A stretch of DNA of 26,163 nt from a virus (taxonomy: Duplodnaviria > Caudoviricetes). Below are positions 1,487 through 18,287 of this stretch, piece by piece. The notes beneath the pieces are model-generated. The model saw nothing but the letters and a program-made list of their open reading frames with translations. It searched no databases and was not told where the DNA came from. The stretch's first letter is position 1. The number at the start of each line of letters is the position of its first letter. Both the position numbers and the translations under genes were made by a program. The stretch spans positions 1-26,163 of the IMG/VR virus record IMGVR_UViG_3300023293_000082; one strand, given 5' to 3'.

Positions 1487-1492
1487 TAAAAA

Positions 1493-1548
1493 AAATAACA
1501 GTACCTAAACGGCACTAGCGCGCCCGTTTAGCTTACGTTAGTAACAAT
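1493..1548 (+). repeat. attC-like site E1
   Basis: TAACA 1496, stem CTAAACGG/CCGTTTAG followed by an unpaired base, CGTT-AGTAAC-AAT 1536-1548. Confidence 0.75.
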
Positions 1549-1574
1549 TATTTTTTTGCCACCAAGCAGTACGG

Positions 1575-2222
1575 TCAAACAGTACGCTCTACTGCTATAT
1601 TAAAATAGGCTTCATCTTGTTCAATACCTATAAAATTTCTTCCTAAATTTTTACAAGCAACACCAGTTGTTCCTGTTCCCATATAAGGGTCAAGTATTGT
1701 GTCGCCTTTATTGGTATATGTTTTAATCAACCATTCCATTAATTCAATAGGCTTTTCTGCTGGATGTCCTGTTCTACTTCCGTTCCTGTTGTTTATAGCA
1801 TCAAAATCCAAAACAGAACCAACATTTTTAGAAGGGTATTTAGTTCTTTGTTCTTTGTTTAGCCTTTGCATTTCTTTTTCAGTTCTTTTTATTTTTTGAG
1901 CATTATAGGGTAGTTTGCCAAATACTAATATTGTTTCGTGTTGCCTTCCTACCATAGTTTTAAAAGAGTTACTTCTATAAGTGTTTTTACGCCATACAAT
2001 GTCATATTTGTAATTTTTTTTATTGCCTAAAACTAATTCAGATGTTAATGGCTGCACACAAAACAAAACAAACCCTTTAGCATTAAAGTTAAATACTTCA
2101 TTTGGTTTTACACCTTTATCCCATTTAGCATAGTTAGTGTTATATGGCAAATCGCTAATTACAAAATCGTAATGCTCTTTAATATCTACCTCGTTACAAT
2201 TTCCTTTATATAATTTTATCAT
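1575..2222 (-). CDS. DNA N6-adenine/N4-cytosine methyltransferase, beta class (cassette 1)
   Basis: Motif IV DLPY, HPAEKP, motif I DPYMGTGTTG. Confidence 0.92.
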   Translation of the reverse strand: MIKLYKGNCNEVDIKEHYDFVISDLPYNTNYAKWDKGVKPNEVFNFNAKGFVLFCVQPLTSELVLGNKKNYKYDIVWRKNTYRSNSFKTMVGRQHETILVFGKLPYNAQKIKRTEKEMQRLNKEQRTKYPSKNVGSVLDFDAINNRNGSRTGHPAEKPIELMEWLIKTYTNKGDTILDPYMGTGTTGVACKNLGRNFIGIEQDEAYFNIAVERTV

Positions 2223-2281
2223 CTTTATCTATATTTTAATTCGTACCTCATTAATTTGCCAACGCTCTAAAAAATAACAGT

Positions 2282-2346
2282 AACTAACACAGTATATAAT
2301 TAATGGCAAAAAAGCCACTAACCATATACAACACGTTATGCGTAAT
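2282..2346 (+). repeat. attC-like site E2
   Basis: TAACA 2285, arms GTATATAATTAATGGC/GCCACTAACCATATAC (mismatches become G:T on the minus strand), CGTT-ATGCGT-AAT. Confidence 0.8.
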
Positions 2347-2413
2347 GCCTTGCTGACCATTTCCAATTGAAGTTCCGTGAAGGAAAAACAAAAAGAAAAA
2401 AGCCACCGCACTT

Positions 2414-3058
2414 TTAAAACATTGTAATTTGTTGTTTAAATTCATTGTATAGTTTTTTTCCTGTTTCAAAATATTTGCTATCAATTTCGCAAATATCCAA
2501 ATCAAAACCTTCTTTATCGCAAGCAATTGCAATAGTCATACTTCCACCGTGTGTATCAAGTATTTTCATTCCCTTTTCTGCAAATGTATTTAAGCACCAT
2601 CTATACAAATCTATTGGTTTTTGTGTTGGGTGCGTTCTTATTGTTGGCATTCCCACGCCTTTTATATTTCCTTTAAACCCGTATCTATTACCATCCCACA
2701 TATACTTGAAAATCTTTGCGTTTTTATCAAATGAAGTCCAAGCCATTTCACAATCTGCATAAGTATCTGAATGGTTCAATTTGTCCCAATTTATAAAACA
2801 CCTACTATTTTTTAAATGCTCTATAAAATAATTTCCTCCCCAAATAATTTGATTTTTACTAATTCTAAAAAGCTGTTCAAAGTATTCAGGTTCTGGTATT
2901 TTAGAATCCCAATCATTATCTGAATTATTGTTTAATCTTTTATTTTTAGTTACTCCAATCCCATAAGGCGGATCAACTATTGCAAGGTCATAGTGGTTAT
3001 CGGGTTTAGTTTTCATAAACTCGATGTTGTCTATATTGTAAAAGTTTATTTCGCTCAT
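2414..3058 (-). CDS. DNA N6-adenine/N4-cytosine methyltransferase, beta class (cassette 2)
   Basis: Motif IV DPPY, IIWGGNYF, HPTQKP, motif I DTHGGSMT. Confidence 0.93.
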   Translation of the reverse strand: MSEINFYNIDNIEFMKTKPDNHYDLAIVDPPYGIGVTKNKRLNNNSDNDWDSKIPEPEYFEQLFRISKNQIIWGGNYFIEHLKNSRCFINWDKLNHSDTYADCEMAWTSFDKNAKIFKYMWDGNRYGFKGNIKGVGMPTIRTHPTQKPIDLYRWCLNTFAEKGMKILDTHGGSMTIAIACDKEGFDLDICEIDSKYFETGKKLYNEFKQQITMF

Positions 3059-3105
3059 ATAATTAAATTAAAAAATCCCTCCCTAAAAAATTAAAAAATA
3101 CAGAT

Positions 3106-3165
3106 GCCTAACACCAAATATAAGCCATAGAAAAAACGGCTCATATTATTTCCGTTGTAGGTAAT
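3106..3165 (+). repeat. attC-like site E3
   Basis: TAACA 3109, arms AATATAAGCC/GGCTCATATT, CGTT-GTAGGT-AAT. Confidence 0.8.
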
Positions 3166-3172
3166 AAGCCTA

Positions 3173-3283
3173 CTACCTTTTCTTGTGTATTTCCCAATAC
3201 CAATAATGAGCAATCAGTAAAAGTGATGCTACTATAAAGATGGTTACTATTGCCGTAACTACTAATATTTCTTGATTTTCCAT
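3173..3283 (-). CDS. 36-aa single-pass membrane peptide MENQEILVVTAIVTIFIVASLLLIAHYWYWEIHKKR (cassette 3)
   Basis: Translated by hand; fills the unit between E3 and E4; hydrophobic helix plus basic tail; A-rich leader. Confidence 0.7.
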   Translation of the reverse strand: MENQEILVVTAIVTIFIVASLLLIAHYWYWEIHKKR

Positions 3284-3322
3284 AATTTATGTTTTACTGT
3301 TTCAAATCCGTAGGCTTAAAAC

Positions 3323-3380
3323 CTACAACAAAGGCTAAAAAGCCATACAAGTACAGGATCTTAGCCTAGTCATTACCCTT
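3323..3380 (+). repeat. attC-like site E4 (terminal; ends in CATTACCCTT instead of CGTT)
   Basis: CAACA 3326, arms AGGCTAA/TTAGCCT, same length class as E1-E3. Confidence 0.65.
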
Positions 3381-3410
3381 ACTATTACGCACCTAATAAA
3401 AAAAGGTTGT

Positions 3411-3436
3411 AACCTTTTCGATATTAATCTCGTAAA
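3411..3436 (+). promoter_or_regulatory. ECF-sigma-type promoter motif (copy 2), overlapping the palindrome AAAAGGTT-GT-AACCTTTT at 3401-3418
   Basis: AAC-N17-CGTAAA upstream of ATG 3460. Confidence 0.55.
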
Positions 3437-3446
3437 CATCCGCAAC

Positions 3447-3454
3447 CAAATATA
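3447..3454 (-). promoter_or_regulatory. Bacteroidota -7 promoter box facing the left cassette array
   Basis: TATATTTG on the minus strand; -33 box not evident. Confidence 0.45.
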
Positions 3455-3459
3455 AAACA

Positions 3460-3603
3460 ATGAGACCAAGACACGAATCGAAGCACTTTCAAAAGCTGAA
3501 ACCAAACAGCAAACATAAACGTAAAGGCAATCTGTTAACGCGCATACTGCGAACTAAGTTAATAAAATGGATTGATAAAACATTTGCCTTTGTATTTAGA
3601 TAA
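3460..3603 (+). CDS. 47-aa basic peptide MRPRHESKHFQKLKPNSKHKRKGNLLTRILRTKLIKWIDKTFAFVFR
   Basis: Translated by hand; AAAACA leader; promoter motif upstream. Confidence 0.55.
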   Translation: MRPRHESKHFQKLKPNSKHKRKGNLLTRILRTKLIKWIDKTFAFVFR

Positions 3604-3617
3604 CCGATGGAAAAGGT

Positions 3618-3625
3618 TATATTTG
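3618..3625 (+). promoter_or_regulatory. Bacteroidota -7 promoter box for the replication operon
   Basis: TATATTTG immediately before the structured leader. Confidence 0.6.
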
Positions 3626-3628
3626 TAT

Positions 3629-3721
3629 TCGCTGCCTCTCACGGTATAGAGCGATAAAGAAACGTGTAGGCGTACAATGATGACAGGTGAGAGGGTCGGA
3701 TTTGTACGCCTATTTTATTTT
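3629..3721 (+). promoter_or_regulatory. Structured 5' leader: two hairpins with complementary loops, then a U-rich tract
   Basis: TCGCT/AGCGA stem enclosing CCTCTCAC; 11-bp TAGGCGTACAA/TTGTACGCCTA stem enclosing GTGAGAGG. Confidence 0.7.
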
Positions 3722-3731
3722 AATAAATGCC

Positions 3732-4457
3732 ATGAATAGTTACGAACTCTCAAGATCATGGTTTGACTTCTGCTTTGAAAATCCAGAAAAGATCAAGCCA
3801 AATCATACGGCTTTATATTTCTTTGCCATTGAGCATTGCAACCGTTTAGGATGGAAAAAGAAATTTGGTTTTCCTACTACTATGGCAATGGAGGCAATAG
3901 GAATAAAGTCATATAACACTTACATAAATACCCTTAACGACTTAGTTCGATGGGGTGGATTTGAAATGATTGAACGGTCAAAGAATCAATACTCAGCAAA
4001 CATTATTGCCCTATCAAATATTAACAAAGCACTTGATAAAGCACTTGATAAAGCATTGATAAAGCACGGTACAAAGCAAAGTGAAAGCACTAGTGAAAGC
4101 AATGATAGTATAGATAAACAAATAACAATAAACAATAAACCAATTAACAATAAACAAGAGGTAGTTTTGCCTTTTGATTCAAATGAATTTTTTAGTCAAT
4201 GGAACATTTGGAAGGAATACAAAAAGGCAGATCATAAATTTAATTACAAAAGCAACGTAAGCGAACAAGCTGCCTTGGCTAAACTTTCCGAACTTTCAAA
4301 CGCAACCGAATTAACTGCTATTAAAATTATTCACGAATCAATTTCAAACGGATGGAAAGGGTTCTTCACTCAAAAAGATAACAATGGAAAAGGAAACCAA
4401 GGCGATCGAGCGCGCGCACTCGCGGAAGCCAACGGCATTGACTACGATAGCTTATAA
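3732..4457 (+). CDS. Phage replication initiator (lambda O-like architecture)
   Basis: HTH-like N-terminus (LYFFAIEHCNRLGW, AMEAIGIKSYNTYINTLNDL), low-complexity iteron linker, C-terminal WKEYKK...SISNGWKGFF; start taken at ATG 3732. Confidence 0.85.
   Translation: MNSYELSRSWFDFCFENPEKIKPNHTALYFFAIEHCNRLGWKKKFGFPTTMAMEAIGIKSYNTYINTLNDLVRWGGFEMIERSKNQYSANIIALSNINKALDKALDKALIKHGTKQSESTSESNDSIDKQITINNKPINNKQEVVLPFDSNEFFSQWNIWKEYKKADHKFNYKSNVSEQAALAKLSELSNATELTAIKIIHESISNGWKGFFTQKDNNGKGNQGDRARALAEANGIDYDSL
4026..4157 (+). repeat. Probable replication origin: iterons plus A-rich tract inside the initiator gene
   Basis: AAAGCACTTGAT x2, AAAGCATTGAT, AAAGCA core seven times at 11-12 bp period, then AACAAT repeats. 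Confidence 0.75.
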
Positions 4458-4977
4458 CCTCGAAGCGAAGCCAATGCTAATGCAGATAAGGGAGGGGAAC
4501 GAAAAGACAGTTCAAACGCAAGTAATAAGCGCAATAGTCAAAGCGTCCGAAGCTATGCAGATAAATCTAAGCGATAGCGCAATTAAAATCATTACCGAAG
4601 ATTTGATTGACATGTATCAATACGAATCTATTCAAGATATTATCGAATGCCTTAAGCAAGGCCGAAGAGGTGTGTACGGTGTTAACTCTTACGGTAAGCT
4701 TAACTTGGAACTGATTTCAAAATGGATGCAAATATATTTAGATGGGAAGTATCTAGCCAAAGAGAATCACGAAAAGATAAAACAGAGCCTAATCGAAAAA
4801 GATAATGATTTTGATGCGGAAGAGTTTTACCGAAAAGGCAAAGAATATATTGAGGCTCAAAAGGAACTGAATAAAAAAGGCAACCAATTTTCAAACGCAA
4901 CGTATAATGAAATTAAGCACCAATACTTAAAAGAAAAGAAAGATAAAAAAAATATTGACAATAATATTCCTAGCTAG
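4384..4977 (+). CDS. Replication accessory protein (position of a P-like helicase loader)
   Basis: 197-aa ORF overlapping the initiator 3' end; function from synteny only. Confidence 0.55.
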   Translation: MEKETKAIERAHSRKPTALTTIAYNLEAKPMLMQIREGNEKTVQTQVISAIVKASEAMQINLSDSAIKIITEDLIDMYQYESIQDIIECLKQGRRGVYGVNSYGKLNLELISKWMQIYLDGKYLAKENHEKIKQSLIEKDNDFDAEEFYRKGKEYIEAQKELNKKGNQFSNATYNEIKHQYLKEKKDKKNIDNNIPS

Positions 4978-5089
4978 TTTTATGCTCACCTCGTGCGCTT
5001 CTTCAAGAAGCTGCGGGGACATTTACAAGGCTGGAAAGAAAGACCCGCCAAAGATGGAGAGGAAAGCGATTAGAATGTCTAAAGGGTAA
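4943..5089 (+). CDS. Small lipoprotein (I/M)KKILTIIFLASFMLTS-CASSRSCGDIYK..., non-ATG or mutated start
   Basis: Basic N-terminus, hydrophobic core, lipobox LTSC; first codon ATA, in-frame TAA at 4928. Confidence 0.55.
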   Translation: MKKILTIIFLASFMLTSCASSRSCGDIYKAGKKDPPKMERKAIRMSKG

Positions 5090-5135
5090 TGCTAAATGTA
5101 AAAAGCGTTTTAATGATTTTTAAATAATGTTATGG
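5082..5135 (-). repeat. attC-like site E5 (terminal, degenerate; begins AAGGGTAATG on +)
   Basis: Arms TGTAAAAAGCGTT/AATGATTTTTAAA, TGTTA at 5128; shares CGTTTTAATG apex with E6. Confidence 0.6.
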
Positions 5136-5290
5136 CAAGTTCTGAAATAATACAATCAAAAGGAGAAGTACAAATGACCAAAAGAAAATGGGGGCAACTA
5201 TACAAAAAAGGTTGGCAAAGACACCAAGACTTTTGGAATAGAAGGTGGTGGATTAGATTTAAGTGGGATGCTGAATCTAATTTGCCATAA
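5132..5290 (+). CDS. 52-aa Trp/Lys/Arg-rich peptide (cassette 4)
   Basis: MASSEIIQSKGEVQMTKRKWGQLYKKGWQRHQDFWNRRWWIRFKWDAESNLP; ATG lies in GTTATG and TAA in CATAAC of the flanking sites. Confidence 0.65.
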   Translation: MASSEIIQSKGEVQMTKRKWGQLYKKGWQRHQDFWNRRWWIRFKWDAESNLP

Positions 5291-5337
5291 CGGTTTGTGT
5301 ATGGCATCGTTTTAATGTGCTATACACGTTGTTATAC
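5280..5337 (-). repeat. attC-like site E6
   Basis: On +: ATT-TGCCAT-AACG, arms GTGTATGGCA/TGCTATACAC (G:T on +), TGTTA. Confidence 0.8.
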
Positions 5338-5356
5338 ACTTTTAAATTTAAATAAA

Positions 5357-5554
5357 ATGAACTTTAAAGAAGGACAAAAAGTAAATTACGAAAATAAAGA
5401 AACTCATATCGAAACACTTAACAATAATGGTTCTTGTATTATAGCTAACCCCTTTTGGAATTGGGACGAAGAAGGTTTATGTGTAGATGAAGGTATTGAT
5501 TACGATGTACCTTATTGGATTAACGTTAAGATAACAGAGCTTAATTGTGTATAA
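5357..5554 (+). CDS. 65-aa acidic hypothetical protein (cassette 5)
   Basis: ATG 5357 after AAATAAA; stop codon inside the TAAC of E7. Confidence 0.75.
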   Translation: MNFKEGQKVNYENKETHIETLNNNGSCIIANPFWNWDEEGLCVDEGIDYDVPYWINVKITELNCV

Positions 5555-5602
5555 CACTAAGCTAGAATACGTTTCTTCAATGTATTTTAGCGGCTGTTAT
5601 CG
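5544..5602 (-). repeat. attC-like site E7
   Basis: On +: ATT-GTGTAT-AAC, arms GCTAGAATACGTT/AATGTATTTTAGC (two G:T on +), TGTTA. Confidence 0.8.
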
Positions 5603-5637
5603 AGTCATTTTAATGCTCGAAATTTAAACGAAACAAA

Positions 5638-6596: not shown

Positions 6597-6690
6597 ACCG
6601 CATGTATAATAATACTACCACTCGTGTAAATCAACACAACCAATGTCAGGTGTTTGCGTATATTTAAATATACAAAACGATAAAACTATG
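6597..6690 (+). repeat. 94-bp promoter/leader repeat, copy A
   Basis: Ungapped match (about 69/94 by hand) to the reverse complement of 18194-18287. Confidence 0.85.
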
Positions 6691-6906
6691 ACAACTTCAG
6701 AGATTAACAACGAAAGAAACGAAAAAGGTGTATACTCAGACGGCAATGATGTTGCTGGCTGGTTTGCAATCTCAAGGGATAACATAAACTTAATTACATA
6801 CTATGAGGATAAATATACCTTTTCTCAGAAAGAAGATGTAATCAGGAGATATACAGATAGAGGGTTTGCAATAAGGATAACTCAGCTTCAAAACAGAGGG
6901 TACTAA
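6688..6906 (+). CDS. 72-aa hypothetical protein (moron)
   Basis: ATG at the end of the repeated leader; own terminator. Confidence 0.75.
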   Translation: MTTSEINNERNEKGVYSDGNDVAGWFAISRDNINLITYYEDKYTFSQKEDVIRRYTDRGFAIRITQLQNRGY

Positions 6907-17959: not shown

Positions 17960-18196
17960 TCATGAAGGGTAGTTCATGTTTATTTTTTCCGCTTTGCAGT
18001 GTCTTGTAAAACACTCTATATGACCACCCATTTGATCTGTGGTTATAATACCTTCTTTTAGTGTTCTCATTAACTTTACTGAGAACCTCCATAAGTTATC
18101 TTGAGTGACCTCTGTGATAGCTAAGATTACCTCTCTATTGCTTGTAAATGCTGCGCTGTTTCCCATTTCTGTGTATCCCGTTTCTGTGTTTGTCAT
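17960..18196 (-). CDS. 78-aa hypothetical protein (moron)
   Basis: ATG 18196 at the end of leader repeat copy B. Confidence 0.75.
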   Translation of the reverse strand: MTNTETGYTEMGNSAAFTSNREVILAITEVTQDNLWRFSVKLMRTLKEGIITTDQMGGHIECFTRHCKAEKINMNYPS

Positions 18197-18287
18197 GTTC
18201 TTATCGTTTTGTATATTCAAATATACGCAAGGCATCGAAACTTGTTAGTCTAGTTTATACGAGTGGCATCATTATTATACAGACGGT
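18194..18287 (-). repeat. 94-bp promoter/leader repeat, copy B (TATATTTG at 18218-18225)
   Basis: Homologous to 6597-6690. Confidence 0.85.

Follow-up and report, generated by a model that had tools for sequence, protein, structure and literature searches.

Why would the two ends of a small gene unit in a phage genome be complementary to each other, rather than to the other end at the same site? This question is raised by a 26,163-base virus record (IMGVR_UViG_3300023293_000082), the whole of which is called the window here. The window is one contig of an incomplete phage genome and encodes a terminase, a portal, a head protease, an Erf-like annealing protein, a replication initiator and two N6/N4 DNA methylases. 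The best matches of its methylase region are phages of Tenacibaculum, Nonlabens and Flavobacterium, which points to a Bacteroidota host. Five small accessory genes, the two methylases among them, lie in cassette units delimited by seven hairpin sites, S0–S3 in array 1 and S4–S6 in array 2, and four of the five units are lost or replaced in near-identical phages. The answer that we favour, and consider probable, is that the units are mobile cassettes belonging to an integron-like system that Bacteroidota have in common with their phages. The two ends of a cassette would pair as the R arm of a recombination site, where a mismatch at position 11 likely serves to mark which strand and which arm are cut.

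Gain, loss and exchange of cassettes at G|TT

Three phage contigs (L512–L514) are 96–99% identical to the window and probably represent one population, since they are alike at both cassette junctions. They lack 1538–3372, and in them the S0 hairpin runs directly into the right half of the array-1 target (3373–3385, plus strand, TTACCCTT...), with one substitution. In array 2 they keep cassette D and carry a 749-nucleotide core-plus-gene unit instead of 5292–5555, before an unchanged S6. The empty and swapped alleles therefore identify S0 and S6 as resident docking hairpins and indicate that the core upstream of a gene travels along with it. By comparison they also show that gain, loss and exchange of units all take place precisely at the G|TT crossover, on the strand that is antisense to the phage genes. 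No target-site duplication was found in the empty allele, and the segment that moves extends past the paired ends to take in a hairpin core, unlike a miniature inverted-repeat transposable element or another terminal-inverted-repeat transposon.

The same alleles reverse the orientation that a preliminary description of the locus had given to array 2: its circle closes on the minus strand, with the hairpin core upstream of the gene. That description had also assigned the mismatched bases to the AA of a conserved AAT. This is correct for the plus-strand GTT end in array 1, but in array 2 the AAT is found at the other end, on the minus strand, and the two arrays therefore face opposite ways. Taking the sense strand of the open reading frames (ORFs) as the top strand of both arrays was ruled out by the swapped alleles together with a comparison of flanks and cores in related loci. 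For sites with downstream flanks at least 97% alike and the other flank unrelated, the core was common (at ≥0.89) in 13 of 13 pairs; for the reverse situation, with the upstream flank alike, it was common in 1 of 9, the pairs being not independent in either case. A unit-level comparison of the travelling core, limited to just six homologous pairs, gave 0/6 upstream and 1/6 downstream.

Array 1 opens with S0 (1490–1537, plus strand), where AAC at 1497–1499 precedes the core at 1500–1536 and 1537 is the G of G|TT; this hairpin folds on the minus strand and is retained in the empty allele. Its left arm (1490–1509) resembles the cassette C end at 2269–2288 (AAAAATAACAGTA then C/A CTAA), a near-duplication. 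Cassette C (1538–2335, plus strand) has ends 1537–1556 and 2269–2288, core S1 at 2289–2334 and an N6/N4 DNA methylase ORF on the minus strand (1575–2222), and is absent from L512–L514. Its ends recur in L001 and L002, and in L033 they enclose another methylase. Cassette B (2336–3154, plus strand) holds the second N6/N4 DNA methylase (2414–3058, minus strand) between decayed ends without an outer stem, with core S2 at 3113–3153; this core and gene are common to L047, up to the GTT at 3154. Cassette A (3155–3372, plus strand) has ends 3154–3173 and 3310–3329, core S3 at 3330–3371, an A for the crossover G at 3372, and a hydrophobic ORF of 36 residues on the minus strand (3173–3283) with only a sub-threshold Pfam match.

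In array 2 the minus strand is the top strand. Cassette D (5090–5290) has ends 5279–5291 and 5129–5141, a weak core S4 at 5091–5128, an A for the crossover G at 5090 and a short ORF on the plus strand; the S4 core occurs with an intact AAC in L050 and L100. Cassette E (5291–5554), the unit replaced in L512–L514, has ends 5541–5555 and 5331–5345, core S5 at 5292–5330 and a 65-residue ORF from 5357 on the plus strand, and its core and gene lie beside another left neighbour in L358. The cassette that replaces it encodes a 215-residue protein (L512:6002–6646), whose PPC motif we take as a hint of a cytosine methylase; Pfam gave no family for the genes of cassette E, cassette D or the replacement cassette. 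S6 (5555–5602, minus strand; core 5556–5595, GTT on the plus strand at 5596) is identical in L512–L514 behind the different cassette. A second small hairpin with a TTTTAATG loop follows it at about 5599–5618. The S0 (1500–1536) and S6 (5556–5595) cores are both of a common AAGCTA...TAG type, as at array ends elsewhere (downstream sites of L001, L047, L052 and L053).

The AAC and GTT triplets around the stem-loop are present in S0, S1, S2, S5 and S6, and the crossover G has become A in S3 and S4. There, after the oldest cassette of each array, the same TTACCCTT remnant stands on the top strand (3372–3381 and 5081–5090); it resembles a cassette start that is common in other phages. The lost crossover G together with the remnant may lock the array boundary.

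Cognate pairing of the ends and the mark at position 11

All five counts of complementarity in the preliminary description were reproduced exactly: 17/20 for cassette C, 7/9 for B, 18/20 for A, 12/13 for D and 13/15 for E. It had placed the mismatches of the long matches at positions 10 and 11 (position 1 being the crossover G), with one more at position 7 in C. They lie at 7, 10 and 11 in C and at 10 and 11 in both A and E, but D (5129/5291) is mismatched at 11 only; in B the mismatches are at 5 and 8, and pairing then collapses. Its statement that each end matches the partner of its own unit also stood, the cognate combination ranking first of 120 pairings both at positions 4–9 (27/30) and at 4–20 (56/85), with averages of 9.75 and 30.25 for fully non-cognate pairings. 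The outer stem taken alone is weak in the window (14/20 at 12–15, rank 5 of 120).

For a larger sample, related sites were collected by a pattern without any condition on positions 5 and beyond, and by two of the window cores. A unit was scored intact if at least four of the five bases at 5–9 paired (81/117 in the first phage set). The enlarged phage set contained 131 distinct units, 86 of which formed a stricter subset with distinct 5–10 sequence. Pairing in the 131 units was found in 111 at position 9, 73 at 10, 5 at 11, then 115, 110 and 104 at 12, 13 and 14 and 61 at 15; positions 16–24 paired in 33–48 units, which is background. The stem therefore does run beyond the 7-bp R box, as had been proposed. 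The conserved mismatch at 10–11 survives in this set for position 11, which is unpaired in 126/131, but not for position 10; both are unpaired in 54 units and 11 alone in 72. What is conserved is therefore not the suggested 9-bp stem with a two-base bubble but one non-Watson-Crick pair, at position 11. An A occupies position 11 on one arm, after the crossover, in 131/131 units. Read on the bottom strand, 94 units have G·T there (A·C on the top strand), 22 have T·T and 10 have C·T, and the remaining 5 have a normal pair.

Runs of pairs from position 12 outward are modally 3–4 bases long (range 0–16) and reach at least 8 bases in 6/131 units, so that the 9–10-bp outer stems of the first and third cassettes of the window (C and A) are unusual. 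In the 86-unit subset, 227 of 258 positions at 12–14 were paired, compared with a maximum of 131 in 10,000 permutations. The usual form is thus 9–10 pairs, one mismatch at 11 and 3–4 further pairs, and the two-base bubbles of the window are less common. These results show statistically that pairing at 4–9 and 12–14 is cassette-specific and that the second arm avoids the complement of A11.

Bacterial units bear the same mark. One of 49 was paired at position 11 in a bacterial set that includes the phage locus L302 (source of 11/70 units and 6/45 ORF calls). Among 30 units beside a bacterial recombinase, none was paired at 11 and all had the A. A further search that used only the ends of units, and left positions 10 and 11 and the core free, gave 78 bacterial units, of which 74 had A11 and 4 were paired there. 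A11 is also present in 52/62 sites that have no cognate partner upstream (background 7,776/24,641), and for this reason the enzyme probably recognises it as a base of the cleaved arm. Since the other arm avoids the complement of A11, the two sides of the folded site differ. Position 11 may have a role in choosing strand and arm; the enzyme might sense the wobble itself or simply the lack of A11 on the second arm.

Circles closed in silico agree with the earlier prediction that the full hairpin exists only in the excised form: the cognate end folded better than up to ten random ends in 126/138 phage units, by a mean of 6.9 kcal/mol. The ORF-sense (bottom) strand folded better in 135/138, a preference that holds for C, B, D and E in the window (4/5), A being about equal. 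Phage ORFs are inverted relative to the site in 53/53 units and in the window; bacterial ORFs, called as the longest ORF with L302 removed, lie on the top strand, the classical sense, in 28/39. The stem is kept throughout cores of 37–155 nucleotides. Long cores of about 118 nucleotides are very common in L302:12186–18103, L017 and L049, and in phages some of them hold start codons or small annotated ORFs whose reading continues across the site and enters the following unit. The site detector demands an ungapped L stem, which makes its 138/138 ungapped stems circular as evidence; it missed several window sites and returned 23 false sites per 438 kb of shuffled DNA. The bulge was hence judged on 68 units found without reference to the core. 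An ungapped L stem fitted these at least as well as a stem bulged within L'' in 59, so that the extrahelical base described for attC within L'' is mostly absent.

Could the complementarity be nothing but a relic of cassette birth? An end copied by fold-back, or reuse of an end module, would leave only A11 under selection, with the outer stem and the mismatch idle. Such an origin would suit the variable outer runs, the presence of A11 in sites without a partner, and the recurrence of one end pair around different genes (cassette C and L033; the end of cassette A and L421). We consider it unlikely, because copying predicts a perfect pair at 11, where 126/131 units are unpaired while 12–14 pair in 79–88%, and because all four pair types occur at 13 and 14 and pairing drops sharply after 15. 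Reuse of end pairs and leader sequences around different genes was seen as such in L033:5931–6673, L421 and L407, and together with core replacement among older homologues it hints at how new cassettes may be built.

A Xer-like recombinase beside the arrays

A distinct recombinase had been suggested from the shape of the sites. Marked arrays do adjoin a recombinase other than canonical IntI, although none was found on the window contig itself. Among loci fetched for their sites or methylases, five (four bacterial, one phage) have a tyrosine recombinase gene beside such sites. The encoded enzymes score best with the XerA-like family NF040815; their match to TIGR02249 is split (about 2–184 and 231–315) and reaches 113–203 bits against a cut-off of 265. 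In the I2 region they are about 43 residues shorter than IntI4, the IntI insertion being about 40 residues. A close match of this recombinase occurs in 36 of 121 genomes (one array-bearing genome and 120 from its phylum), and the gene heads arrays of up to 17 detected sites. Sixteen of 20 flanks downstream of it contain co-oriented sites, with 62 sites co-oriented and 13 opposite in all. A GTTR-N6-A motif, a possible attI, lies within 170 nucleotides of the gene in 19 of the 30 loci from which the pattern was drawn (background 4.75%) and in 10 of 30 independent loci, compared with 2/30 on the other strand; 8 of 38 loci were left out of the motif set as short or duplicate. Near-identical hairpins upstream carry different first cassettes from the GTT on (L322 and L327; L352 and L353). 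In the phage locus, L049:9591–10439, a Xer-like recombinase is encoded directly after the array, behind the last AAC half-site; it has only three other relatives, which are distant (34–35%) and without clear arrays.

In the mechanism that we propose, a single DNA strand is predicted to fold into the recombination site, with the paired ends as its outer (R) arm. A Xer-like tyrosine recombinase without the IntI insertion, encoded by the host and occasionally by a phage, would act on it in trans. This enzyme would read A11 on the cleaved arm. Strand choice, which in classical integrons comes from extrahelical bases and the I2 domain, would here come from the base opposite A11 that fails to match it, together with the G·T bias of the core. 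The methylase cargo may protect the phage from host restriction.

That the linked enzyme scores best with XerA-like NF040815, and lacks the insertion that handles single-strand sites in IntI, would suit recombination of double-stranded DNA in Xer/dif fashion. The ends would then be two similar protein-binding half-sites, the mismatch a by-product of base preferences, and no hairpin would be involved. This is improbable, given that positions 5–9 and 12–14 vary among cassettes but covary within each, that the stem is preserved over the whole range of core lengths, and that G·T pairs favour one strand in 135/138 units.

A further reading, that the sites are plain attC and are mobilised by a canonical IntI encoded at another place in the host, with the Xer-like gene as a bystander, is very improbable. 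IntI1 did recombine the bottom strand of the A11-bearing end from Polaribacter phage P12002L (PMC9892861), and among the genomes that have these sites G009 contains a match to canonical intI, with a stop inside it. However, no TIGR02249 match over the cut-off was found in 8 of the 9 array-bearing genomes searched (G006 being the proteobacterial control), the full-hairpin attC1 of P12002L gave no verified integration (PMC9892861), and the Xer-like gene sits directly upstream of arrays whose first cassettes are swapped at GTT. That the hairpins act in RNA, as terminators or stability elements, can hardly be their main role and is largely refuted by the swapped alleles: the better-folding strand is the mRNA strand in 53/53 phage units, but in bacteria the majority of ORFs are on the opposite strand, the circle alone brings cognate ends next to each other, exchange falls exactly at G|TT, and Rfam gave no match, the Flavo-1 RNA motif (RF01705) included, in the window or nine array-rich loci. 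The label Flavo-1 RNA, once considered for the repeats, was ruled out by that search, and the papers give no link.

Several observations weigh against the cassette mechanism. Excision must start from same-site, non-cognate ends, which pair in only about 27–41% at positions 5–9, and the extended stem is therefore not needed for every reaction. A G·T wobble as such is not obligatory, since T or C takes the place of G in 32 of the 131 units and another five have a normal pair at 11. The ends of cassette B are decayed. At 85–96% identity of the downstream flank the same core was kept in only 7/40 pairs, which implies that, given time, the cores themselves are replaced too. De-duplication reduced the shared ancestry among units and did not remove it. 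No tyrosine recombinase gene was found on the 26-kb window contig, which is incomplete, and elsewhere the enzyme is linked to the sites by neighbourhood only, with 4/20 flanks lacking a co-oriented site and 20/30 loci lacking the motif.

A wider proposal may tentatively be made, which we hold as a possibility rather than an expectation. Bacteroidota may possess a widespread integron system without I2 and without the L-box extrahelical base, using a fixed mismatch in an extended R arm as strand selector; its enzyme might be a living Xer-IntI intermediate, and phages might have co-opted the system, with inverted cassettes and docking hairpins of their own, to swap anti-restriction genes. If true, such an intermediate would bear on the chicken-and-egg problem of I2 and attC (PMC4792948). 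Position 11 offers one precise base to mutate in order to learn how an I2-less enzyme chooses a strand, and its mark is a signature by which to find a pool of cassettes that may escape the tools now in use. To phages, the arrays would offer a site-specific route to gain and swap DNA methylases.

Other features of the window stand apart from the arrays. The Erf-like gene and its neighbour (101–1181) are replaced in L512–L514, with no hairpin sites at the borders. Iteron-like 12-nucleotide repeats (AAAGCACTTGAT) at 4021–4107, within the replication initiator gene (3687–4457), are probably the replication origin. Two long inverted repeats (6597–6701 and 18183–18287; 34 and 48 nucleotides, 82–85%) lie 11.5 kb apart, each upstream of a small ORF, and are possibly shared promoter or operator regions.

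Comparison with Xer systems and integrons

XerA, XerC and XerD act on double-stranded dif sites and are not known to act on cassette arrays. These proteins (NF040815; PDB 4A8E) are the best sequence matches of the array-linked enzyme and equal it in length across the region of the IntI insertion.

A canonical control was taken from 19 regions beside canonical intI of Gammaproteobacteria-class genomes (one of 20, L482, was left out at 79 bases), in which 30 of 61 units passed the filter applied to the phage units. Their pairing fell smoothly, at 93, 60, 53, 47, 37, 17, 13 and 20% for positions 8–15, without a dip at 11; an outer stem and an invariant base were likewise absent from these 30 units. 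Pairing of cognate R boxes, as opposed to those of the same site, is standard integron anatomy and was seen in the control too. It follows that cognate pairing slightly past seven bases is general to integrons, and that the punctuated 14-base arm is particular to the Bacteroidota/phage family.

Like classical integrons (PMC5027507, PMC4792948), the window-type arrays have AAC...GTT R boxes, a stem-loop, a G|TT crossover, cognate R'/R'' pairing in the circle and tandem order; the more stable bottom strand is likewise a known property of attC (PMC5027507). As four and three attC-like sites with no tyrosine recombinase gene found on the incomplete contig, the window arrays correspond to clusters of attC sites lacking an integron integrase (CALINs). 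In some known integrons, too, the recombinase gene is transcribed towards the first cassette, but their enzyme is described as an IntI and their attC sites as having a G that protrudes from the L box. In contrast to classical attC, the R arm reaches position 14–15 with an invariant A and an unpaired 11, the central spacers are typically 3 and 5 nucleotides, and the L stem mostly lacks an extrahelical base (PMC5027507). The linked recombinase further differs from that of classical integrons by the missing I2 insertion, and the phage ORFs by their inversion relative to the site. I2 has been described as the reader of the extrahelical bases, which raises the question of whether I2 or attC came first (PMC4792948, Escudero et al.). 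Recombinases near attC but without the IntI domain were concluded not to be IntI (PMC4889954, Cury et al.), and IntegronFinder 2.0 reported few integrons in Bacteroidetes (PMC9024848).

Cultured phages with such arrays are Flavobacterium phage hemulen6-1 (12 sites in a row), Tenacibaculum phage JQ (6) and P12002L (several). Qi et al. (PMC9892861) described attC clusters without an integrase, with DNA methylases, in virulent phages including P12002L, whose attC1 is a site of exactly the window's family. Their attC1 showed no verified integration by IntI1, and attC2 recombined from the bottom strand only, with oligonucleotides ending at the 7-base box; attC2 is the A11-bearing end of the cassette whose full-hairpin site is attC1. 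Seven-base-pair R boxes were used and, as we understand the primer, the ORF-sense strand was taken as top for attC1. The extended arm, the position-11 mark, the inverted ORFs and a Bacteroidota recombinase are not described in the parts of that paper covered here. That cognate R boxes pair, and that phages have attC clusters containing methylases, is already in print, and no title or abstract describing the system, the recombinase or the position-11 mark was found in a search that left subscription journals mostly outside its coverage. What the window adds is a precise set of alleles, empty in one array and swapped in the other, and the comparison with canonical cassettes. The site behaves like an integron attC, yet it is not linked to an IntI and mostly lacks the extrahelical base within L''.

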